Shown here in pieces: positions 4,085 to 57,842 of a stretch of DNA of 64,000 bases. Below the pieces are notes generated by a model. The model was not told the origin of the DNA, did not search any database, and saw only the letters and a list, made by a program, of their open reading frames with translations. Source of the DNA: Parcubacteria group bacterium. GTDB taxonomy: Bacteria > Patescibacteriota > Minisyncoccia > Phycocordibacterales > Phycocordibacteraceae. Numbering within the stretch: position 1 is the first letter of the stretch; each line of letters starts with the position of its first letter. Location: the NCBI GenBank assembly GCA_028286615.1, contig JAQBRG010000004.1, positions 111,867 through 175,866 of the forward strand, written 5' to 3'. The translations under genes were made by a program, and so were the position numbers.

Positions 4085-4486
4085 CTACTCCCTAGGTTGG
4101 GGATGCAAGCTCCATGCCGCAGCAACCAGTTCGTCAGGAGTCGGGCCATTCAGAAGACCAAAGATATCGAGCCCTGCTTCCTCTTTGTATTGACTAAAGA
4201 GCACCACGCCCATCCCTCCGTCAGCCCTAGCGTTCGAGCTCCCTTCCCCAATCATCTTACCGAGAGTGGCAATAGAGTTCTTGCAGCAGGAACAGACGCC
4301 GAAGAGAAGAATTTCGGGACGCTCTTCCAGCGGGCTCACCATTCTTGCGCCGACAGCTTCAAAGGCTGCACGCACATCAGCGGGAATAGTCTTACCAGAC
4401 TGGTGAGAGTAGTAGCCGACACGGGTCTTACGACCAACCATGAAGTTCATTCGAGTGCCCCTCCTTAGGGCATTGGTGCAAGGCAC
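4085..4486 (-). CDS. Hypothetical protein
   Basis: ORF of 133 aa on the same strand as the neighbouring ORF. Its start region is divergent from the TrmB-like gene. No recognisable domain. Confidence 0.4.
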   Translation of the reverse strand: MPCTNALRRGTRMNFMVGRKTRVGYYSHQSGKTIPADVRAAFEAVGARMVSPLEERPEILLFGVCSCCKNSIATLGKMIGEGSSNARADGGMGVVLFSQYKEEAGLDIFGLLNGPTPDELVAAAWSLHPQPRE

Positions 4487-5933: not shown

Positions 5934-5943
5934 CAAAAAGAAA

Positions 5944-5970
5944 AACCCCGCATCTGCGGGGTTTTTCTTT
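5944..5970. terminator. Bidirectional intrinsic terminator (pheA + / hup -)
   Basis: Hairpin AACCCCGC-ATCT-GCGGGGTT flanked by AAAAA and TTTTTCTTT. Confidence 0.75.
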
Positions 5971-10897: not shown

Positions 10898-10926
10898 AGA
10901 CCCCGCAGATGCGGGGTCTTTTGTGT
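10898..10926. terminator. Intrinsic terminator downstream of ppa
   Basis: Hairpin AGACCCCGC-AGAT-GCGGGGTCT flanked by AAAACAAAA and TTTTGTG. Confidence 0.75.
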
Positions 10927-12940: not shown

Positions 12941-12968
12941 AAAAAGAAAGGTCCGCGGGTGCGGACAT
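12941..12968 (-). terminator. Terminator-like hairpin plus U-tract on the minus strand, immediately upstream of nusA
   Basis: Stem GTCCGC-GGGT-GCGGAC, followed on the minus strand by CTTTCTTTTT. It lies between a promoter-like element and the nusA start. Confidence 0.5.
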
Positions 12969-12982
12969 TTCAGATAGATAAA

Positions 12983-13003
12983 ACATACCATATATAGGTA
13001 TGT
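12983..13003. promoter_or_regulatory. Perfect inverted repeat ACATACC-ATATATA-GGTATGT upstream of the TetR gene (candidate operator)
   Basis: A 7-bp-arm palindrome in an AT-rich spacer, 80 bp upstream of the TetR start. Confidence 0.4.
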
Positions 13004-13082
13004 TGCGTCAATGCGAGGAGGAGAGTAAGGTTGCCGGTAGATAGGGTATTGTCCCACAGTCAATTGAATACAGGAGGACGAC

Positions 13083-16947: not shown

Positions 16948-17014
16948 CCCCGCACACACAAATACGCGCACATGCCTTTGGTACGCGCGCGTTATACTTT
17001 GAATAAACAACGGC

Positions 17015-20608: not shown

Positions 20609-20803
20609 ATGAAGAGACATCTTGCAACTCGTGAATCTATCGCGAAGCTACAGGAGGCTCGCAAGAAGCGTGTGTCCCAAGCCCTGGCCAAGAAAGGGAA
20701 CGAAAACGGGCTTTCTAAGGCACAGGTCCACCAAGCCGTTATGTCTATATCCAAGTCTGGATATAGGGTGCCGGCAAAACTTGTGCCCAAAGTCCCCTCC
20801 TAG
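20609..20803 (+). CDS. Hypothetical small basic protein
   Basis: 64 aa, with a GAAGGAG Shine-Dalgarno site 8 nt upstream of the ATG. Confidence 0.35.
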   Translation: MKRHLATRESIAKLQEARKKRVSQALAKKGNENGLSKAQVHQAVMSISKSGYRVPAKLVPKVPS

Positions 20804-20927
20804 GAGGGGACTTTCAGATTCTAGGATTAAGAAAAAGTTCCCAACATCGTCCCAGACAGCAATAGTATTTGATATTGGTGTATCCTCGTGGTTCACTAAC
20901 CGGCAGGTGGCAGTAAGGAGAATAAAA

Positions 20928-21170
20928 ATGGTCGATTGGTGTAAGCCGATCCGGTTCGAAAATGGCGAGCCATGCGAGCTGCAAAGAACGAATCCTGACG
21001 GATGGAAACAGTGGGGTACCCGTGAAGACGGCGCCTATCCAACTCGAGAAATCCACCGGCTTGGCATAGACGAATCAACGCTCGGTGGAGCAATGTCTGC
21101 TCATTGGTTCGTGCATGAAGACGGGGAAATACACTGGCCAGGCTATAACGTCGTGAATATTCCTGAGTAG
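20928..21170 (+). CDS. Hypothetical small protein
   Basis: 81 aa (MVDWCKPIRF...), with an AGGAG Shine-Dalgarno site upstream and a terminator downstream. Confidence 0.4.
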   Translation: MVDWCKPIRFENGEPCELQRTNPDGWKQWGTREDGAYPTREIHRLGIDESTLGGAMSAHWFVHEDGEIHWPGYNVVNIPE

Positions 21171-22114: not shown

Positions 22115-22217
22115 ATCTTTGTATTTTTAATTAAGGTGTTCGACTACCTTACGACTAGGAACGTGTTGATTTCATGAAAGGGAATAGAGTCCGAGCAATG
22201 CGGTATCATACCTATAT

Positions 22218-23930
22218 ATGAAGCCCATGCGCGGCCTGTCCCTTATTGATGTGCTTGTAGGCACCGCTCTTTCTGTTGTTATATTTCTCGCACTCTTCGG
22301 ACTTCTTCGCGCTTCACTTCTCGTTTCTTCTCTCGCAAAAGCAAAAGCAGGCGCTACCGCTGTTGCAGACAGCCAGATGGAATATATTCGCTCTCTTGAT
22401 TACGACTCCGTTGGTGTTGCAGGAGGTATTCCAGCAGGAACCATCCCTCAGTACGCAACAACAACGCTCAACAGTATCCCGTACGGTGTTCGTACTCTCA
22501 TTGAATATTATGACGACGCTAAAGACGGTCTTGGGGCCAGCGACTCTAACGGCATCACAACCGATTACCGACGTATAAAGATAGCCATAACGTATTACGT
22601 GCGCGGGAAGCAGTATGAGGTTGATGTGATATCGAACTACGCACCTCCTTCCATAGAGACAACCGTTAACGGGGGAACTCTCAAGGTTGCGGTTGTGAAC
22701 GCGTCGGGTGTCGCGGTGTCTGGAGCTTCGGTTCGTGTGCAGAACACTAGTACTTCTCCAACGATCGACTTCACCACCTTCTCCGATATAACGGGCAGCA
22801 TCTCTCTTCCGGGCGCACCTACGTCAACGCAGTACCAGATTGCTGTTAGCAAGGCGGGATACTCAAGTGCACAAACATACGCGCGTGATGCAACTAATCA
22901 GAATCCAAACCCTGGATACTTCACCGTTGCAAAGAACCAGACAACAACAGGAACTTTTGCCATAGATCTCCTCTCCTCTCTTACGCTTCGTACGTTCTTG
23001 CCTATAGCTACCGGCACCTCAACTGATTCGTTCCCAAACAGCTCGAACCTCAGCAGCATGAGCAACACGGTAGTTTCTACAGGCGCCGTCGCACTAAGCT
23101 CAGTTGTTGGTGTATACAGCACTTCTGGCACTGCAGTTTCAACCACGACAGCTCCAACCTATCTCGCATCTTGGACTAGTGCTTCAGCAACTGAGTCAAA
23201 GCCAGCAAGTACGGACATACTGGTGCGTGTAGTTGATAGCTCGGGCACACCGCTCTCTGAGACTGATCTCCCGGGTAACAGCGCAGGCTTTACGACATTC
23301 CCTATAAACCTCTCAACTGTTTCAACAACTACGTACCCTAGCCTAGCTCTCTCAGCCACGCTTACAACTTCAGACACAACAGTTACGCCCCAGCTACAAG
23401 ACTGGGCGCTTGTATACAAGGCAGGACCGACGCCAGTTCCAAACGTTGCGTTCACGCTTACCGGCGCCAAAACAACTGGTTCAACAGGAGCGGGAGCTGC
23501 TATATACAAGACCAACGTTTCGAACACTACAGATTCAACAGGAAGCCGAACTATGAGTCTTGAGTGGGACTCATACAAGTTAGGGCTTACGAGCAACGAT
23601 GTTATTGATGCCTGCACTCCTCCTCCATACGCGCTTACGCCTGGAGTTTCTTACGACCAGTCTCTCTATCTGGGTACGGCAACAACGAACCGTGCGCTTA
23701 TCTCGGTACGTGACAATGCAGGTAACGTAGTGCCAGGAGCCTCAGTTACACTCGCGCGTACTGGCTTTACGCAGACCGTAACCACATCTAACTGCGGCAC
23801 GGCGTACTTCGGAGGGGTTACAAGTGCTACCAACTACACCGTTACCATTTCAAAGTCCGGCTATACTACCTCTACATACACCAATGTCTCAGTATCCGGA
23901 CAAACTTTCTATGCAGCATCATTCCCGTAG
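22218..23930 (+). CDS. Large PilV-like minor pilin/pilus tip protein with a Thr/Ser-rich repetitive C-terminal region
   Basis: The N-terminus MRGLSLIDVLVGTALSVVIF is a prepilin-type class III signal (G-[FL]-[ST]-L-I-[DE]). The protein is 570 aa, very rich in T/S/N, and carries many N-x-T/S sequons. Confidence 0.6.
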   Translation: MKPMRGLSLIDVLVGTALSVVIFLALFGLLRASLLVSSLAKAKAGATAVADSQMEYIRSLDYDSVGVAGGIPAGTIPQYATTTLNSIPYGVRTLIEYYDDAKDGLGASDSNGITTDYRRIKIAITYYVRGKQYEVDVISNYAPPSIETTVNGGTLKVAVVNASGVAVSGASVRVQNTSTSPTIDFTTFSDITGSISLPGAPTSTQYQIAVSKAGYSSAQTYARDATNQNPNPGYFTVAKNQTTTGTFAIDLLSSLTLRTFLPIATGTSTDSFPNSSNLSSMSNTVVSTGAVALSSVVGVYSTSGTAVSTTTAPTYLASWTSASATESKPASTDILVRVVDSSGTPLSETDLPGNSAGFTTFPINLSTVSTTTYPSLALSATLTTSDTTVTPQLQDWALVYKAGPTPVPNVAFTLTGAKTTGSTGAGAAIYKTNVSNTTDSTGSRTMSLEWDSYKLGLTSNDVIDACTPPPYALTPGVSYDQSLYLGTATTNRALISVRDNAGNVVPGASVTLARTGFTQTVTTSNCGTAYFGGVTSATNYTVTISKSGYTTSTYTNVSVSGQTFYAASFP

Positions 23931-39315: not shown

Positions 39316-39321
39316 AAGAAA

Positions 39322-39348
39322 AAGCGACCCGTTTGTGACGAGTCGCTT
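39322..39348 (-). terminator. Terminator downstream of the XRE regulator gene
   Basis: AAGCGAC-...-GTCGCTT with TTTTTCTTTTAT on the minus strand. Confidence 0.6.
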
Positions 39349-39377
39349 CTCCCTATATAAGGAAGTGTTCGAAGAAC

Positions 39378-39893
39378 TTACTGCTCTTCGGGGTTTGCGT
39401 CCATGCCGGCTAGGGCGCGGATGAGGTCGAGGATCTTGTGACGGACTCGACCGCGCCTGATCTTCGGGAAGACCGTGGCGATCTCCAGGCCTTCGGCGGT
39501 CATCAGGAAATCGTGGACGGCGCGATCGTCGCTGGCGGGCGCGAGCTCGACGATGCCGAGCAGCGGATCGGCCAGACCTTCGAAGAAGTAGGAGATCGGG
39601 GCCTGGAGGGCCTGAGCGATCTGATACAGCTTGGAGGCGCTGACGCGGTTGGCGCCACGTTCGTACTTCTGGACCTGCTGGAACGTCAGCTCCAGAGCGT
39701 CGGCCAGGTGTTCCTGGCTGACGCCCAGGATTTTGCGGCGCATGCGGATGCGGGCGCCGACGTGCAGGTCGACCGGATTGGGCTGATGGCTGGCGTCATT
39801 CGCCGCGTGGGCTGCAGAGCCCATGGGCTTCCGGGCGTTGTTGGATGATGGCACTTTGTTGTCCTCCTGGACGGTACTGTTGAAACAGCCCAT
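39378..39893 (-). CDS. XRE-family (Cro/cI-type HTH) transcriptional regulator; high-GC foreign gene
   Basis: HTH ILGVSQEHLADALELTFQQVQKYERGANRVSASKLYQIAQAL. GC is about 62 % in a 60-nt sample. The promoter TTGACA-17-TAATGT abuts the ATG, suggesting a leaderless mRNA. Confidence 0.7.
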   Translation of the reverse strand: MGCFNSTVQEDNKVPSSNNARKPMGSAAHAANDASHQPNPVDLHVGARIRMRRKILGVSQEHLADALELTFQQVQKYERGANRVSASKLYQIAQALQAPISYFFEGLADPLLGIVELAPASDDRAVHDFLMTAEGLEIATVFPKIRRGRVRHKILDLIRALAGMDANPEEQ

Positions 39894-39958
39894 ACATTAA
39901 TACATATATAGGTATTTGTCAATCTTTCTAACCGTTACACACCTCTGTTCTTGCGTAT

Positions 39959-39972
39959 CGAACAATTGTTCG
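39959..39972 (+). promoter_or_regulatory. SOS box (Cheo-type LexA operator CGAACAATTGTTCG) followed by a TATACT -10 element
   Basis: A perfect match to the Gram-positive-type LexA consensus CGAACnnnnGTTCG, 15 nt upstream of the lexA-like ATG. Confidence 0.7.
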
Positions 39973-39986
39973 ACTATACTAGAAAC

Positions 39987-40547
39987 ATGGAACACAAAGC
40001 CAAAATCCACTCCTTTTATAAGAAGAATCGCCGGATGCCTTCTATAACGGAGATAATGAAGCTGTGCGGGCTACGCTCTCGAAGCTCCGCATTCTATGTA
40101 TCGGAGCAGCTTGTTAAGGACGGGATGGTTAAGAAGGATAAGGCAGGGAAGTTGGTGCCGGCCGAAGGAATGTTCTCGCTTCCTCTCGTGGGACATATAC
40201 GCGCAGGGTTTGCCGCTCCTGCCGAAGAAGAACTTGCAGATACTATTTCAATAGGCGAGTACATGCTGCGAGACCCGAATGCGAGCTACCTGCTCCAGGT
40301 AGAAGGGGACTCAATGGAGGATGCGGGTATTCATGGGGGAGACATGGTGGTGTTCGAGCGCACACAGAACTTCAAGCCAGGAGACATTGTTGTTGCTCTC
40401 ATTGAGGACGGATACACGCTCAAATATTTGCGTAAGAAGGGAAGTGCTTTTTATTTGGAAGCTGCGAACGACAGGTATCCAGACATACATCCGAAAGAAG
40501 GACAGATTGTAGGAGTGGTAACAGCAACGTTCCGTAAATATAAATAG
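39987..40547 (+). CDS. lexA: LexA-like repressor / S24 peptidase (winged-HTH N-terminal domain plus an autocleavage domain)
   Basis: QVEGDSMEDAGIHGGDMVVF (Ser of the GDSM motif) with a Lys further downstream (LKYLRKKG). The N-terminus has DNA-binding helices. The gene is preceded by an SOS box. Confidence 0.75.
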   Translation: MEHKAKIHSFYKKNRRMPSITEIMKLCGLRSRSSAFYVSEQLVKDGMVKKDKAGKLVPAEGMFSLPLVGHIRAGFAAPAEEELADTISIGEYMLRDPNASYLLQVEGDSMEDAGIHGGDMVVFERTQNFKPGDIVVALIEDGYTLKYLRKKGSAFYLEAANDRYPDIHPKEGQIVGVVTATFRKYK

Positions 40548-44997: not shown

Positions 44998-45027
44998 TTT
45001 GCATTTCCTAGCAGCCTCCTATATATT
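44998..45027 (+). promoter_or_regulatory. rpsL promoter, TTTGCA-17-ATATAT(T)
   Basis: The hexamers lie 35-65 nt upstream of the rpsL ATG. Confidence 0.5.
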
Positions 45028-45062
45028 GCAGGTATCCCGCAGAGCGGGTTTTCATTTGCCAC

Positions 45063-45963: not shown

Positions 45964-45984
45964 TTCCAATAACAAGAAAGCAGA

Positions 45985-46018
45985 AACCGCGCTCAAGCTT
46001 GGGCGCGGTTTTTGTTAT
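45985..46018 (+). terminator. Intrinsic terminator after rpsG
   Basis: AACCGCGC-...-GCGCGGTT followed by TTTGTTATTT. Confidence 0.75.
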
Positions 46019-46023
46019 TTATC

Positions 46024-46284
46024 TCATTGGGGTTTCTTCAAATCTCCCATCTTCTCAAGAAGCTCCCTTGATTGCTTAGAGGTATTTCTGAAGCCTAGGG
46101 AGGAAAGATCGTGAGTGCCTGTTGCTCCCCAAGACTGACCCATATTGTCGGTGGCGTAAGTAATGCCGCCGACAGAAGTAAAGCTGGGCGTTCTGCTCGC
46201 TTTTTGATCGCTTGAGAAAGTTATGTTTGGCATAGGCTTAAAGCCTAACTTACGTAACTGTTTACTTAGCCTGCTCGTAGCCAT
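46024..46284 (-). CDS. Hypothetical protein (weak)
   Basis: ORF of 86 aa, Ser/Lys-rich. No other support. Confidence 0.25.
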   Translation of the reverse strand: MATSRLSKQLRKLGFKPMPNITFSSDQKASRTPSFTSVGGITYATDNMGQSWGATGTHDLSSLGFRNTSKQSRELLEKMGDLKKPQ

Positions 46285-46424
46285 CTACGGCTCCTATTGT
46301 TCGAGGCAATTGATGAAGGCGAAGTTTGTGTCTGCCTTGCAATCCGGATGTTTGGTTTCCGCGTATCTGGGAACATCTAGCACGTAGCCTACGCTTATTT
46401 TACGTGTCAGCAAGAATTCTTTTA

Positions 46425-46453
46425 TTGCGCAGATTAAGAACGAGGCATATATT
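46425..46453 (+). promoter_or_regulatory. Promoter TTGCGC-17-TATATT for the KGG-motif gene
   Basis: The hexamers lie 45 nt upstream of the ATG, and a GGAAGGAAG Shine-Dalgarno site is present. Confidence 0.45.
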
Positions 46454-46498
46454 CAAAACAGGACTCCATGGGGAGTTGAGAGTAGGGAAGGAAGTCAG

Positions 46499-46708
46499 AT
46501 GGACGGATCAGAGAAACCAGTGCGTCGCTCCGCACCTCGCGGATTCGCGGCAATGGACGCCGATAAACGTCGCGAGATCGCTCGCAAAGGCGGCAAGAGC
46601 GTCCCGGACGAGAAGCGCAGCTTCTTCCAAGACCGCACTCTGGCCGCCGACGCCGGCAGGAAAGGCGGCAAGCAAACGCAGTCGGGACGGACTCCTGAAA
46701 TCCAGTAG
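46499..46708 (+). CDS. KGG-repeat general stress protein (YciG-like)
   Basis: Two KGG motifs (ARKGGKS, GRKGGKQ) in a 69-aa hydrophilic basic protein. High GC. Confidence 0.55.
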   Translation: MDGSEKPVRRSAPRGFAAMDADKRREIARKGGKSVPDEKRSFFQDRTLAADAGRKGGKQTQSGRTPEIQ

Positions 46709-46771
46709 TCACTAAATAAGACCCAAAATAAAGCCGCGCCTCCTCCCAGGGGCGCGGTTTCTACAATGTAT

Positions 46772-47110
46772 TCAATTCGGTAGCACAGCTTTCCCGACGT
46801 GTGTGAATCCATAGGGCTCAAGATCGACACATTTAAGGATTCGCCACGCTTGGCCAGTTTCATCATAGGCAATGGTCAGACCACCGAGCTTGTTACCAAA
46901 TTCCATAGACATAAAACAAGGTTCGTTTTCAGCTAGGGGACGAAAAACCTTCTTTGCCTCGAGAGGGCTGATTTTGGGCGGGGCTACCTCCTCCGAAAGA
47001 AGGTAGCGAGCTTTAATTAAAGAAACCTCTCGCTTGTCATCTTTGGGGTTGAATGGCTCGAATCCAAGGTGATAAAGCTTGGCTGCGAAAGGGCCTAGGG
47101 AGTCGGTCAC
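46772..47110 (-). CDS. Hypothetical protein
   Basis: ORF of 112 aa. Confidence 0.35.
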   Translation of the reverse strand: MTDSLGPFAAKLYHLGFEPFNPKDDKREVSLIKARYLLSEEVAPPKISPLEAKKVFRPLAENEPCFMSMEFGNKLGGLTIAYDETGQAWRILKCVDLEPYGFTHVGKAVLPN

Positions 47111-47182
47111 TGGACATCTCCTCTGTCTGGCAGGACTCTAACACTTTGGCCGCTTTTTGTCTGTATTTTCGTCTCGAGAGAC

Positions 47183-47212
47183 TTGACAAAGTGACTCTGT
47201 TGCTGTATATTA
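47183..47212 (+). promoter_or_regulatory. Promoter TTGACA-17/18-TATATT
   Basis: Consensus -35 hexamer and a near-consensus -10 hexamer upstream of the 47271 ORF. Confidence 0.5.
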
Positions 47213-47270
47213 GACGCAGCTCATAAGCGCAGGATGTTCCTGCCATGCAAGGCTCAGGAGGGCCTAGAAC

Positions 47271-47510
47271 ATGAATTCTTCGAAAATCCTCGGTTCGATC
47301 GCGGTTATCGGAATGGTCATGATGGCGGTTTCGACCCCCATCCTGCTCAACCAGCCCACCGATTTCTACATCGACGCCGTCTTCAACAAGTACCTGTCCT
47401 TCGTCATGATCTTCGCCGTCGGCCTCGGAATCTTCGCTTCGGCCACCCCGTTCGCCGTCCGCGCCTGGTTCCACGAGCGTCAGCAACTGCTGGCCATCGA
47501 AGCCAACTAA
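47271..47510 (+). CDS. Hypothetical small membrane protein (two TM helices)
   Basis: 79 aa with hydrophobic segments IAVIGMVMMAV and FVMIFAVGLGIFA. High GC. Confidence 0.45.
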   Translation: MNSSKILGSIAVIGMVMMAVSTPILLNQPTDFYIDAVFNKYLSFVMIFAVGLGIFASATPFAVRAWFHERQQLLAIEAN

Positions 47511-47532
47511 ACAACCCCGCCTCCAAGGAGGC

Positions 47533-47572
47533 ACCGGTCGTAGCAATAAAATGCTATGACCGGTTTTTCGTT
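47533..47572 (+). terminator. Intrinsic terminator upstream of fusA
   Basis: ACCGGTCGTAGCA-...-TGCTATGACCGGT followed by TTTTCGTTTC. Confidence 0.7.
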
Positions 47573-47647
47573 TCTTGCGCTTTGGTGCCGCTTTCAGTAC
47601 ATTATAGGTAACGCATTGGCGGGCTTTTTATTTTATTTACTCTACTT

Positions 47648-49795: not shown

Positions 49796-49812
49796 TTTCT
49801 GAGTGGAGTTTG

Positions 49813-49846
49813 CAAAAGACCGCTTTCAAGCGGCCTTTTGCTTTGT
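49813..49846 (+). terminator. Intrinsic terminator after fusA
   Basis: GACCGC-TTTCAA-GCGGCC (one mismatch) followed by TTTTGCTTTG. Confidence 0.55.
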
Positions 49847-49907
49847 ATGAAATAAGAAAAGGCTTGAGTGGTTAAATACTCAAGCCTTTTCGCACGAAAG
49901 ATCGTCG

Positions 49908-50147
49908 TCAATTGCTGCTCTTTGGGGGCATGTTGATTCGTAACAGGCACACGATGATAGTGATGAGCATGAAGATCAACGAAAGCAGAATGGCCCCTCT
50001 CCACCAGATAGAGGGGTAGCTTACATTTCCCCAAGCAGAGCCTAGCGCTGTCATCCCCCACACCGCGACCCCAAATGGGTGGCCAAAGAGCCACCCAAAA
50101 ACCAGGATGATGGTTGGCGGTCTCATCGTGCTATGCATAAGAGCCAT
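49908..50147 (-). CDS. Hypothetical small membrane protein (weak)
   Basis: 80 aa from the internal Met MALMH, with two hydrophobic helices. The long upstream extension of the ORF would overlap the tuf start and was discarded. Confidence 0.3.
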   Translation of the reverse strand: MALMHSTMRPPTIILVFGWLFGHPFGVAVWGMTALGSAWGNVSYPSIWWRGAILLSLIFMLITIIVCLLRINMPPKSSN

Positions 50148-50440
50148 TGGAACCTTCTCCTCTGAAGCGTTATTGCCTCCTACCCGAACGGTACTTTCAA
50201 TGTCCGTATCTGTAAAGCAATCTCTATCTTTTAGCTTGACCGGCCGGTATCTCTCCGGTATCTTAATTGTTAACGCGAGTACGGCGCTCTTTTCAATGTT
50301 CCTCTCCATACGGGGTAGGGATGGCTGGAAGGCGCTGCGCGGGGGAAAACACCTAACGCCTTGGTCGCCTGCCATTCTCTGATAGAAGCAGGCAGGCGCG
50401 GTGAAGTTATCACTTTTAGCTACCACTAACTTACAAACGT

Positions 50441-52018: not shown

Positions 52019-52041
52019 CTCGAAAGAGAAGACAAAAGCAA

Positions 52042-52070
52042 AACCGCCCGAGAGGGCGGTTTTCTTTATT
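52042..52070 (+). terminator. Intrinsic terminator after rpsJ
   Basis: AACCGCCC-GAGAG-GGCGGTT followed by TTCTTTATT. Confidence 0.8.
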
Positions 52071-52126
52071 GCCTACTAAATATGTTATCTTTTGCATCTG
52101 TTCTTTAGTTTTAAGGAGGTGGCTTC

Positions 52127-52474
52127 ATGCCTACCGTAGGTGGAATACCGCCTGTAGATCCTCACAGGCTTTACTTGAAGCGAGCGCATCGGGTCGGGAT
52201 GGTCTGGAAAGGAATTGATGACCACAATGTAGCGGTAGCGGTAGAGCTGGAAAGACAGAAGGGCATTCCGCAGAAAAATACCGAACGCTGGAAAAAATGG
52301 AAGGACGAGAACGGTGTTCGTCCTCGGGGCTATGACACTCTTGAAGTGTGGCGCGACCCTCGGACAATGCGGTTTTCCAAACCACCCACACCTCAGCAAC
52401 TGGCTCAGATGTTCGGCATGAAGACAGGTGCAGATCTGCCAATTCCGAACAGACGAAACAATGTCAGACCATAA
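52127..52474 (+). CDS. Hypothetical protein inserted between rpsJ and rplC
   Basis: A strong AAGGAGGT Shine-Dalgarno site lies 6 nt upstream. 115 aa, followed by a 9-bp-stem terminator. Confidence 0.55.
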   Translation: MPTVGGIPPVDPHRLYLKRAHRVGMVWKGIDDHNVAVAVELERQKGIPQKNTERWKKWKDENGVRPRGYDTLEVWRDPRTMRFSKPPTPQQLAQMFGMKTGADLPIPNRRNNVRP

Positions 52475-52501
52475 TCAAACTTGGTTATGCAAAATGAAGA
52501 A

Positions 52502-52538
52502 CGGCCCCGCGATAGTCTGCGGGGCCGCTTATTTTACG
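52502..52538 (+). terminator. Intrinsic terminator
   Basis: CGGCCCCGC-GATAGTCT-GCGGGGCCG followed by CTTATTTTA. Confidence 0.7.
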
Positions 52539-52736
52539 GTCCGAAAGGACCTAGAGGCGAGTGGCGGAATCGACGAAGCCGTTGTCGGTTTCGCGCCTGA
52601 TGCCGCTGGAACCACCGTCGCCGATGGCTTCGCCTTCGGGCAAAATCCAGCTGGACGGATCACGCCTGATGTCCCGGTTCATGAAAGACCTCTCTTCCTG
52701 TCTCGACGTTGAGACTTTCGCACTATAGCACCCCTA

Positions 52737-52864
52737 TTTGCATTTAAAACCCGCCCCCTGTATAGTTCCCAAGTCGCTAAGTACGTCCTTCGGGACGGAC
52801 CAATGGCCGGAAGGCTCCGTTTGGGAGCCCAACGCGCTATTGGATTAGCGCGCTTTATTTTTAC
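52737..52864 (+). promoter_or_regulatory. rplC operon promoter (TTTGCA-18-TATAGT) and structured leader: a UUCG-tetraloop hairpin plus a terminator-like hairpin with U-tract ending 3 nt before the ATG
   Basis: TTTGCA at 52737-52742 and TATAGT at 52761-52766. CGTCC-TTCG-GGACG at 52784-52797. CGCGCT-ATTGGATT-AGCGCG followed by CTTTATTTTT at 52833-52862. Confidence 0.5.
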
Positions 52865-55494: not shown

Positions 55495-55496
55495 AG

Positions 55497-55530
55497 AAAA
55501 ACCCCGCAGAAGCGGGGTTTTCTTTTATAT
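55497..55530 (+). terminator. Intrinsic terminator after rplB
   Basis: AAACCCCGC-AGAA-GCGGGGTTT followed by TCTTTTATAT. Confidence 0.8.
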
Positions 55531-55537
55531 AGATAAC

Positions 55538-55566
55538 TTGACATATATAGAATTTAATTCTATATA
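55538..55566 (+). promoter_or_regulatory. Promoter TTGACA-17-TATATA whose spacer and -10 form a perfect 21-bp palindrome ATATAGAATT-T-AATTCTATAT
   Basis: The hexamers and the palindrome (55545-55565) lie 27 nt upstream of the AAAGGAGG Shine-Dalgarno site plus ATG of the 55593 ORF. Confidence 0.55.
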
Positions 55567-55592
55567 AAGGGCAGTCAACAAAGGAGGCTTTC

Positions 55593-57766: not shown

Positions 57767-57813
57767 AACGGCCTAAAGTTTGACACTTACCGCCATTTCG
57801 TATAGATTTTACC

Positions 57814-57840
57814 TATCCCGCCCAGCGGGCTTTTAACTAC
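57814..57840 (+). promoter_or_regulatory. rpsS leader hairpin plus U-tract, TATCCCGC-CCA-GCGGG-CTTTT, ending 2 nt before the ATG
   Basis: Same arm sequences as the rpsL leader hairpin. Preceded by a TTGACA-15/16-TATAGA promoter at 57780-57807. Confidence 0.5.
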
Positions 57841-57842
57841 TC

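Follow-up and report, generated by a model that had tools for sequence, protein, structure and literature searches.

The closest described systems to the element analyzed here are promoters and operators of several kinds. Extended -10 promoters carry TGn ahead of the -10 hexamer, or a TRTG sequence in the -16 region of Gram-positive promoters such as those of Bacillus, leaderless-mRNA promoters are found in Actinobacteria and Deinococcus, and TetR proteins have tetO-like operators. Bidirectional promoters that operate by -10 symmetry, in the account of Warman et al. (2021) given by PMC10268837, have -7 and -11 positions that coincide on the two strands and start sites 18 bp apart. Finally, to count as a putative mobile promoter, DNA upstream of genes that are not homologous must by definition be alike over 50 nt or more, with an identity of 80% or higher (Nijveen, Matus-Garcia and van Passel, 2012; PMC3575422). 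Here we compare with these systems a 13-mer, ATACCTATATATG, that is repeated in a 64,000-nucleotide stretch of Parcubacteria DNA (contig JAQBRG010000004.1, positions 111,867 to 175,866; hereafter the window).

A preliminary description of the window reported this 13-mer at two places, upstream of a TetR gene and at an XRE regulator gene next to lexA, and proposed that two horizontally acquired regulators share a mobile cassette or a common regulator. We find that there is a third exact copy and that all three copies are located in non-coding DNA, inside predicted core promoters of divergent promoter regions, which supports the earlier view that the element is promoter DNA. Our interpretation, which we favor only tentatively, is that the 13-mer is a stereotyped piece of native sigma-70-type core promoters and is neither an operator nor a mobile cassette.

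The window is a chromosome segment of 49% GC, 17% of it non-coding, that contains nusA, a type IV pilus cluster, lexA with a Y-family polymerase gene, and the str/S10 ribosomal operons. An NCBI entry from the metagenome-assembled genome (MAG) of a ‘Parcubacteria group bacterium’ matches its TetR protein with 100% identity, and the nearest genomes that were found are Paceibacteria/Kaiserbacteria-like MAGs with NusA identities of 67-73%. No strain variants are on record, in an index that does not include LexA or the 171-aa XRE protein. Loci of related or donor genomes that were compared with the window carry L-numbers (L002, L003, L004, L008, L009, L011, L101 and so on), with L004 being the closest relative as judged by PilB and other proteins. 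Note that promoter hexamers were assigned by promoter scan or by eye and are predictions throughout.

Results

Three copies of a 13-mer in divergent intergenic regions

The 13-mer is present three times in exact form in the window, as copies A, B and C (Table 1). At A and B the + strand reads CATATATAGGTAT, confirming the match that had been described, and at C the + strand reads ATACCTATATATG, so that the copy that had been missed is in the opposite orientation. When read as ATACCTATATATG the copies face nusA (A), the XRE gene (B) and a gene for a 570-aa pilin-like protein (C), and when read as the complement they face the TetR gene, lexA and a gene for a 146-aa protein, respectively. Each copy thus faces genes in both directions, which places all three in divergent intergenic regions. 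The position of the motif relative to the -35, the -10 and the start site is not the same at the three sites. Predicted transcription starts in these regions are at ~12975 (-), ~13011 (+), ~39887 (-), ~39905 (+), ~22216-22218 (+) and ~22198 (-).

The longer likeness between A and B that had also been claimed is borne out. Specifically, the minus strand of A reads ATTGAC-GCA-ACATACCTATATATG and that of B reads ATTGAC-AAATACCTATATATG, which match at 20 of 21 aligned bases with one 3-nt gap. A and C have in common a 14-mer, CATACCTATATATG, and match at 21 of 26 positions without a gap. Among 703 intergenic pairs A-B is the fourth most similar, the three higher pairs being stereotyped terminators, and A-C and B-C rank 8th and 16th. 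A shorter form, the 9-mer CATATATAG, occurs four times in the window, always in intergenic DNA.

With up to two mismatches allowed the pattern has five matches against 0.5 expected, a count that was reached in none of 100 shuffles. No intergenic copy with one mismatch exists in the window, where the matches with one or two mismatches are only a coding site and the self-overlap of copy B, and the 13-mer does not recur in the 4 kb that precede the window in this genome. In Markov simulations any 13-mer is present at least three times in 64 kb in 7% (order 1), 17% (order 3) or 34% (order 5) of cases, where the order-5 model is overfitted and the question of three or more copies is itself post hoc. 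The triple alone is therefore only moderately surprising; its location and the extended similarity raise its significance. The repeat is real and probably not due to chance, yet it is no overwhelming statistical outlier. Exact 12-mer matches also arise by chance in ~1 Mb of unrelated loci, as at L085, and the only other 13-mer present three times in the window belongs to a bidirectional terminator.

Several other identities were considered and rejected. Small leader open reading frames (ORFs) that begin at the ATG of the motif have 25 codons at A, 2 at B and 4 in L004 and are not conserved. Resemblances to an NrdR box, a Fur box, dif, a DNA-uptake sequence, a sigma-54 promoter and a phage RNA polymerase promoter break down on spacing, copy number or sequence. 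An inversion between inverted copies (A or B against C) does not agree with the gene order, which is the same as in relatives. A search for repeats within L101, for a promoter motif shared within that species, gave nothing convincing.

Copy A and the nusA promoter

The predicted nusA promoter that contains copy A has hexamers within the 16-18 bp separation of sigma-70-type promoters and a TG one base upstream of the -10, as is the case for extended -10 promoters. Upstream of nusA, ATTGACGCAA and TGGTA are kept in L002, L003, L004, L008, L009 and L101 with a spacer that varies, and TGGTA is invariant at this promoter in seven related genomes. The layout in the six relatives is ATTGACGCAA, ~10 nt, TGGTAYnTT, 11-14 nt and then a hairpin ATGTCCGC...GCGGGCATTTCTTTTT. 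The 13-mer fills the variable spacer plus the TG, and the spacer core CCTATATATGGTAT is present at the orthologous nusA site only in L004. This conservation indicates that the nusA promoter is vertically inherited and that copy A is part of it. L004 also has the 10-mer core CCTATATATG at its nusA promoter and again at the rny start codon, with a chance probability for the second copy of ~0.007-0.03.

A palindrome had been described at A, and an inverted repeat is indeed present, with arms of 7-8 bp (AACATACC / GGTATGTT) around a 7-nt center that is not self-complementary. Such repeats are expected by chance several times in 64 kb and the repeat alone therefore has little weight. Its right arm is the nusA -10 itself. 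The -10-like elements at A lie back to back with predicted starts ~36 bp apart and not the 18 bp of -10 symmetry.

Between the nusA promoter and the start codon (12941-12981, minus strand) is a leader with a hairpin, ATGTCCGC-loop-GCGGGCA, and a T-run that is near-invariant in seven genomes with loops that vary. This conserved leader resembles an attenuator of transcription. Both in Bacillus and in E. coli the nusA operon is known to be autoregulated in a NusA-dependent manner.

Copy A had been taken for an element of the adjoining TetR gene, but it is not primarily one, as indicated by its position between the nusA -35 and -10 hexamers, which are kept in relatives that lack TetR, and by the presence of a proximal -10 that belongs to the TetR gene itself. 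L101 carries GAGTATTCT at the place equivalent to this proximal -10, and in both genomes the TetR gene has G(G/A)GTATT(G/C)T ~27-30 nt before a start with a Shine-Dalgarno sequence. The L101 TetR is 39% identical, has a near-identical helix-turn-helix region (GMSTGAVFANFENKADLF) and occupies the same position between nusA and pilB, so that the TetR arrangement is older than a recent transfer. Tblastn found no TetR between nusA and pilB in L002, L003, L004 (a 13-kb locus) or L008. The motif does not track TetR: L101 has TetR without the 13-mer in its nusA spacer, and L004 has the core without TetR. Only six TetR relatives were found, all with at most 53% identity over part of the protein, and those other than L101 are in proteobacterial-style contexts (HIG_1_N, GST) with no similar upstream repeat. 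Thus, of the two regulators that had been called horizontally acquired, XRE is foreign (see below) and TetR is no lone recent arrival, given its synteny in L101.

Copy C and the pilin-like gene

The layout at C is GG-TATCAT-ACCTATAT-ATG, with the -10 located 8 nt before the ATG. The start codon is backed by homology (MKPMRGLSLI against MKALRGMSLI in L003), and in the orthologous promoter of L008 the TATCAT is conserved 6 nt before the ATG. The -10 is thus within the 6-9 nt of a homology-supported start that are typical of a leaderless promoter as defined here. The perfect palindrome GGTATCATACC gives GGTATGAT on the minus strand, and since the two -10 hexamers are offset by one base their -7 and -11 positions coincide; the predicted start sites are 18 bp apart, which is the geometry of -10 symmetry. 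Copy C, as predicted from these spacings, is a leaderless and symmetric promoter.

In relatives the pilin-like gene directly follows pilC, and the genes at 20.5-22.1 kb are specific to the window genome. At 20609-21170 a 64-aa ORF (MKRHLATRESIAKLQ...) overlaps a 182-aa ORF in another frame, of which the C-terminal half looks protein-like. These overlapping ORFs may be a frameshifted gene.

Copy B, the XRE insertion and lexA

Copy B lies in the spacer of the TTGACA-17-TAATGT promoter that had been proposed for the XRE gene. This promoter is plausible in that its -35 agrees with the consensus at 6 of 6 positions, but its -10 does so at only 3 of 6 (A-11 and T-7 are kept), because of which the promoter scan did not call it. 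The -10 region has the symmetry seen at C, with TACATT (+, 39893-39898) opposite TAATGT (-, 39899-39894) in the same 18-bp geometry. The leaderless XRE transcript that had been proposed does not fit, since ATG 39893 abuts the -10 and is upstream of any start that this -10 could specify, and since homologues start ~29 residues further in than this ATG; a strong AGGAGG is present 8 nt ahead of GTG 39854. The XRE mRNA is therefore predicted to be leadered.

Because B lies in an inserted segment it has no orthologue. In the window it separates an HD-domain gene from lexA. In L082, L085, L086 and L087 a mazG-like or HD-domain gene is located immediately upstream of lexA with no such segment in between, and the segment is also absent from the available lexA-upstream DNA of L083 and L084, so that all six related lexA loci (L082-L087) are without XRE and without the 13-mer. 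The XRE protein has 171 aa and its ORF is 64% GC, with a promoter and terminator that are AT-rich and host-like. Its best relatives are 77-78% identical, the two that were checked are in corC-lnt-XRE-metK contexts on contigs of 63-69% GC, and those relatives that carry a source name are labeled Caulobacteraceae. The identity, GC content, synteny and labels together indicate a single-gene acquisition from Alphaproteobacteria, and we regard the XRE gene as foreign and alphaproteobacterial on this evidence. The protein resembles PraR/PhrR, as suggested by the lnt-XRE-metK synteny of its relatives and in part by what we take to be the corresponding phrR/actA locus. Donor-side XRE loci have no promoter similarity to B. 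Between XRE and metK the donors have a palindrome, ATATAAAG-N4-CTTTATAT (L097 2960-2985, L098 2955-2980), that is loosely like the motif core. In the window the XRE gene is bracketed by the inverted 8-mers CCTATATA (39352) and TATATAGG (39905).

On the other side of B, lexA has a perfect SOS box, CGAACAATTGTTCG, between TTGCGT and TATACT, and the six relatives have the same layout of SOS box, TATACT, 6-7 nt and ATG. With TATACT 6 nt before the ATG and the relatives alike, lexA is predicted to be leaderless. The LexA box itself is disfavored as the identity of the 13-mer because the sole such box in the window is 44 nt away and is kept in the six relatives that lack the 13-mer. A PraR operator is disfavored as well. 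The PraR consensus obtained in two rhizobia by SELEX is CAAC-N5-GTTG (PMC5527310); with up to one mismatch it is absent near any 13-mer or the XRE promoter, and its count is below chance expectation.

Promoter architecture in the window and its relatives

The pieces that make up the 13-mer recur at other promoters. TAnnnT is located 5-9 nt before the start codon in 22 of 66 genes, in every case at 6-9 nt, against 5-12 genes at control offsets, and TAT directly precedes the start codon in nine. A Shine-Dalgarno-like sequence is present in 10 of the 66 genes, which is no enrichment. Intergenic DNA is enriched for GGTAYnnT (19 of 47 copies) and strongly so for TATATA (14 of 28), and in L003, L004, L009 and L011 genes are likewise preceded by an AT-rich tract and then GGTAYnnT. 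The 8-mer CCTATATA or its complement has eight copies, six of them intergenic, with the promoters of rpsL and sodA among them. Two other genes, 21267 and 31358, have CCTATATG at an equal distance from GGTATAAT and GGTATACT, and several further divergent intergenic regions appear, by eye, to hold overlapping -10 hexamers on opposite strands.

The motif is thus not, as had been thought, tied to regulators, given its third exact copy at the pilin-like gene and the recurrence of CCTATATA and CATATATAG at rpsL, sodA and other promoters. The preliminary description had stated that its proposal would fall if the motif were a frequent AT-rich element with no link to regulator genes; copy C and the shorter forms at other promoters come close to that situation. 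Overall these features would amount to a coherent grammar for the little-known promoters of Parcubacteria/Paceibacteria, with an AT tract plus (T)GGTAYnnT, frequent leaderless genes, almost no Shine-Dalgarno sequences and symmetric divergent promoters. A literature search found no paper that combines Patescibacteria, leaderless and promoter.

Table 1. Coordinates of the features discussed in the text (window numbering).
Feature	Position	Strand	Remarks
13-mer copy A	12989..13001	-	Spacer and TG of the extended -10 of the predicted nusA promoter
nusA promoter: TTGACG (13011-13006), 18-nt spacer, TGG-TATGTT (-10 at 12987-12982)	12982..13011	-	Called by promoter scan
nusA leader hairpin GTCCGC-ACCC-GCGGAC, then T-run	12941..12966	-	Conserved; terminator- or attenuator-like
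GGTATGTT, inverted copy of the nusA -10, other arm of the repeat	12997..13004	+	Candidate distal -10 facing TetR; putative function
Proximal TetR -10 GGTATTGT	13045..13052	+	~30 nt upstream of TetR ATG 13083; AGGAGG Shine-Dalgarno before the ATG
13-mer copy C	22208..22220	+	Last 2 nt of the -10, 8-nt discriminator/start-site region and ATG of the 570-aa pilin-like gene
Perfect palindrome GGTATCATACC	22202..22212		Overlapping TATCAT (+, 22204-22209) and TATGAT (-, 22210-22205)
13-mer copy B	39903..39915	-	In spacer of the candidate XRE promoter
Candidate XRE promoter: TTGACA (39923-39918), 17-nt spacer, TAATGT (39899-39894)	39894..39923	-	Read by eye
XRE AGGAGG (39868-39863) and GTG (39854-39852)	39852..39868	-	Likely ribosome-binding site and start; alternative start ATG 39824
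Inserted segment: PraR-like XRE gene, promoter and terminator	39316..39945		Absent in relatives
lexA control region: SOS box CGAACAATTGTTCG (39959-39972), -10 TATACT (39975-39980), 6 nt, ATG 39987	39959..39989	+	From sequence and relatives
Short form CCTATATAT	45018..45026	+	Overlaps the rpsL promoter -10 (TTGCAT-17-TATATT)
Fourth CATATATAG	55543..55551	+	Right after TTGA in a TTGACA-17-TATATA promoter of a small ORF (55593); part of the 23-bp perfect palindrome TATATAGAATTTAATTCTATATA
Bidirectional terminators AAAAACCCCGC-N4-GCGGGGTTTTT	5940-5967, 10898-10919, 55496-55523		Sole other 3-copy 13-mer family; top intergenic similarities

Additional observations

The TTGACA-17-TATATA(A) promoter at 55533-55592, which precedes an ORF for a 76-aa membrane protein, contains the palindrome TATATAGAATT-T-AATTCTATATA, which could be an operator. 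Both rpsL (45027-45062) and rpsS (57800-57842) have a promoter that is followed, just before the start codon, by a GC hairpin CCCGC-N3-GCGGG and a T-run. A GC-rich palindrome is located just upstream of the conserved pilB -10 (GCGTTATACT) in the window (16965-17000), in L101 (2995-3020) and in L004 (~4433-4456); it is perfect, with 12-bp arms, in L101 and imperfect in the window, and it may be an operator or a terminator. The 8-mer TCAAGTAA / TTACTTGA has five copies in the window, all intergenic and each in a different intergenic region.

In the same genome, ~0.3-0.4 kb upstream of the window start (L103 3675-3796), the divergent intergenic region of a TrmB-like gene has repeated inverted AGTCAT / ATGACTAT units. 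These units are likely a palindromic operator, and one that is unlike the 13-mer. Finally, the str/S10 ribosomal operons are broken by gaps of 0.6-1.7 kb (45964-47647, 49796-50440 and 52019-52864) without Rfam matches; no Rfam family matched anywhere within the window. The first of these gaps has a 69-aa ORF (46499-46708), the sequence of which resembles a KGG-repeat stress protein, among other small ORFs.

Discussion

A promoter-based reading of the repeat

If the 13-mer is a stereotyped piece of native core promoters, then the grammar used by the lineage would consist of an AT-rich tract and, after it, an extended -10 that fits (T)GGTA(T/C)nnT. In many cases this -10 would be 6-9 nt away from the start codon downstream, so that the mRNA has no leader, and in many it would be symmetric enough to face both ways in divergent regions. 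The 13-mer, ATACC-TATATAT-G, would combine the complement of GGTAT with a TA tract and a G, and being made of recurrent promoter pieces it would be expected where two opposed promoters share DNA. At A it would provide the spacer and TG of the nusA promoter, with an ATACC arm that mirrors the nusA -10 towards TetR. At C its ATACC would be half of the -10 core GGTATCATACC, and TATAT-ATG would be the discriminator, start site and start codon. At B it would be the spacer of a host-like promoter that expresses the acquired XRE gene and that most plausibly arose from the A-type module or converged on it; a relationship of A and B by descent is possible. We infer that the hexamers fire and that the exact identity stems from the grammar plus shared ancestry, with no bound protein. 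What is observed directly is where the copies lie, that the -35 and -10 elements flanking them are conserved, and how prevalent the grammar is. The differing registers at A, B and C fit one sequence that is reused in different promoter roles, and stereotyped short functional modules are general in this genome, as with the terminator 13-mer.

Several points weigh against this reading. The grammar alone does not predict a 13/13 identity three times, and most of the TA tract, together with the ACC, lies at A and B in spacer positions that are not read specifically by RNA polymerase. Given three exact copies and not one intergenic copy with one mismatch, the sites look like a discrete class, as expected from descent or from a strong specific constraint, more than like a graded family. 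The + strand at B, GGTATTTG, provides no usable -10, so that the rationale of a mirrored -10 fails there, and the minus-strand -10 of this copy is weak and escaped the scan. Moreover, every hexamer assignment is a prediction. Two readings of the identity remain, namely that A and B share an ancestry that goes back to the host nusA module, or that the sequence is read by a protein.

Alternative explanations

A protein that reads the sequence would be a single trans-acting regulator encoded elsewhere that binds ATACCTATATATG and so would cover the spacer at nusA and XRE, or the start site at the pilin-like gene. We consider this rather unlikely, even though all three sites overlap core promoter elements in the classic position for a repressor and the 13-bp identity includes bases that RNA polymerase does not read, next to -35 and -10 elements that are conserved independently. 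The presence of the L004 core at both the nusA promoter and the rny start codon, with the low chance probability given above, and the high ranks of A-B and A-C among intergenic pairs also argue for such a regulator. On the other hand, the motif is not palindromic and has no shared second half-site, the inverted arm being present only at A, whereas recognizable operators in the window such as the SOS box are palindromes. The register relative to the promoter elements shifts by 2-3 bp between A and B and is wholly different at C, near matches do not form a graded series, and the 4 kb upstream of the window add no copy. The adjacent candidates fail as well, with LexA having its own box, the PraR consensus being absent and TetR not co-occurring with the motif. 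Should this unlikely reading be true, the regulator would couple nusA, a type IV pilus-associated gene and the acquired PraR-like regulator in one small regulon, a foreign gene would have been wired into host control through a host operator, and L004 would show turnover of the same site, at nusA and rny. Another reading, in which the adjacent TetR binds AACATACC-N7-GGTATGTT and also touches B and C, is very improbable. An inverted repeat over both -10s in a divergent region next to tetR is a textbook TetR layout, and the left arm is absent in L004, a locus without TetR, but the second arm is missing at C and at B is represented only by ATAC/GTAT at another spacing. One arm is merely the conserved nusA -10, inverted repeats with 8-bp arms are expected by chance several times per 64 kb, and the syntenic TetR of L101, which has a near-identical recognition-helix region (GMSTGAVFANFENKADLF), is next to a different nusA spacer without the motif.

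A copying or recombination of ~21-26 bp of the ancestral nusA promoter, comprising the -35 and spacer, to the XRE gene and perhaps to the pilin-like gene, by which the identity would reflect recent common descent, is improbable in our judgment. It fits the 20/21 match of A and B with one 3-nt gap, which includes ATTGAC, and the ungapped 21/26 match of A and C, and it agrees with an A module that is ancestral, being present in relatives, and a copy B that is in an insertion absent from six relatives. It also fits an XRE ORF of 64% GC that nevertheless has a host-like, AT-rich promoter and terminator, and three exact copies with no one-mismatch copy are what descent would leave. However, the similarity ends abruptly with no homology past ~25 bp on either side, the published mobile-promoter threshold of at least 50 nt is not reached, and we know of no mechanism that copies ~20 bp. 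C in particular is no simple overwrite because its -10, TATCAT, is orthologous to that of L008. Such reuse would keep the earlier idea of a common origin, with a host promoter as the source; of that idea, the possible shared ancestry of A and B stands and the mobile promoter, by the definition above, does not. A coincidence among three AT-rich, low-complexity promoters is more doubtful still. The simulated frequency of 13-mer triples (7-34% of windows), the intergenic enrichment of TATATA (14 of 28) and the chance 12-mer matches in ~1 Mb of unrelated loci such as L085 are in its favor, and it is opposed by the location of all three copies in promoter cores of divergent regions, the rank of A-B as 4th of 703 pairs at 20/21 identity, an observed count that 0 of 100 shuffles reached and the orthologous site kept in L004. 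Least credible of all is an attachment or recombination site, or the terminal repeat of a mobile element, that delivered the adjoining lineage-specific segments. Each copy is within ~100 bp of a segment that most relatives do not have at that place, namely the TetR block at A, the 20.5-22.1 kb genes at C and XRE at B, and a weak 8-bp inverted pair, CCTATATA/TATATAGG, surrounds XRE. But at A and C the 13-mer is on the native side, between elements conserved in relatives, each segment has one copy with no paired repeats flanking the TetR block or the 20.5-22.1 kb block, the ORFs tested include no integrase, transposase or recombinase family, the gene order is that of relatives, and L101 has its TetR gene in the same position.

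The repeat is thus most likely ordinary DNA of native promoters, one of which may have been reused for a foreign gene. Besides a promoter grammar, the window offers a concrete case of a foreign regulator gene that would be expressed from host-style signals; the repeat itself is modest and would become interesting only if a protein binds it.

Comparison with known systems

The site at A is like a tetO-type operator in that AACATACC-N7-GGTATGTT is located 79 nt upstream of tetR over divergent -10s, and it is unlike one in that both arms are present in one of three copies, one arm is the nusA -10 and the TetR locus of L101 is without the motif. Mobile promoters have in common with this repeat the presence of similar upstream DNA before unrelated genes in one genome, but a mobile promoter is disfavored since the likeness here comprises 13-14 exact bases within 21 nt (A-B) or 26 nt (A-C), and at most ~26-32 nt.

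The -10 symmetry of bidirectional promoters, as far as the account in PMC10268837 describes it, has counterparts at C (TATCAT/TATGAT) and at B (TACATT/TAATGT), both read from sequence alone, and differs from the arrangement at A, where the predicted starts are ~36 bp apart. Copy C, lexA and about a third of the window genes are like the leaderless-mRNA promoters of Actinobacteria and Deinococcus; XRE does not fit this class, and its usage in Parcubacteria is deduced here solely from sequence. Finally, the nusA promoter is like an extended -10 promoter in having TATG-G-TATGTT after TTGACG at 18 bp. It departs from that class in that the repeated unit is mostly spacer, which is normally not sequence-specific, and in that a GG or TGG ahead of the hexamer seems to be preferred in this lineage.

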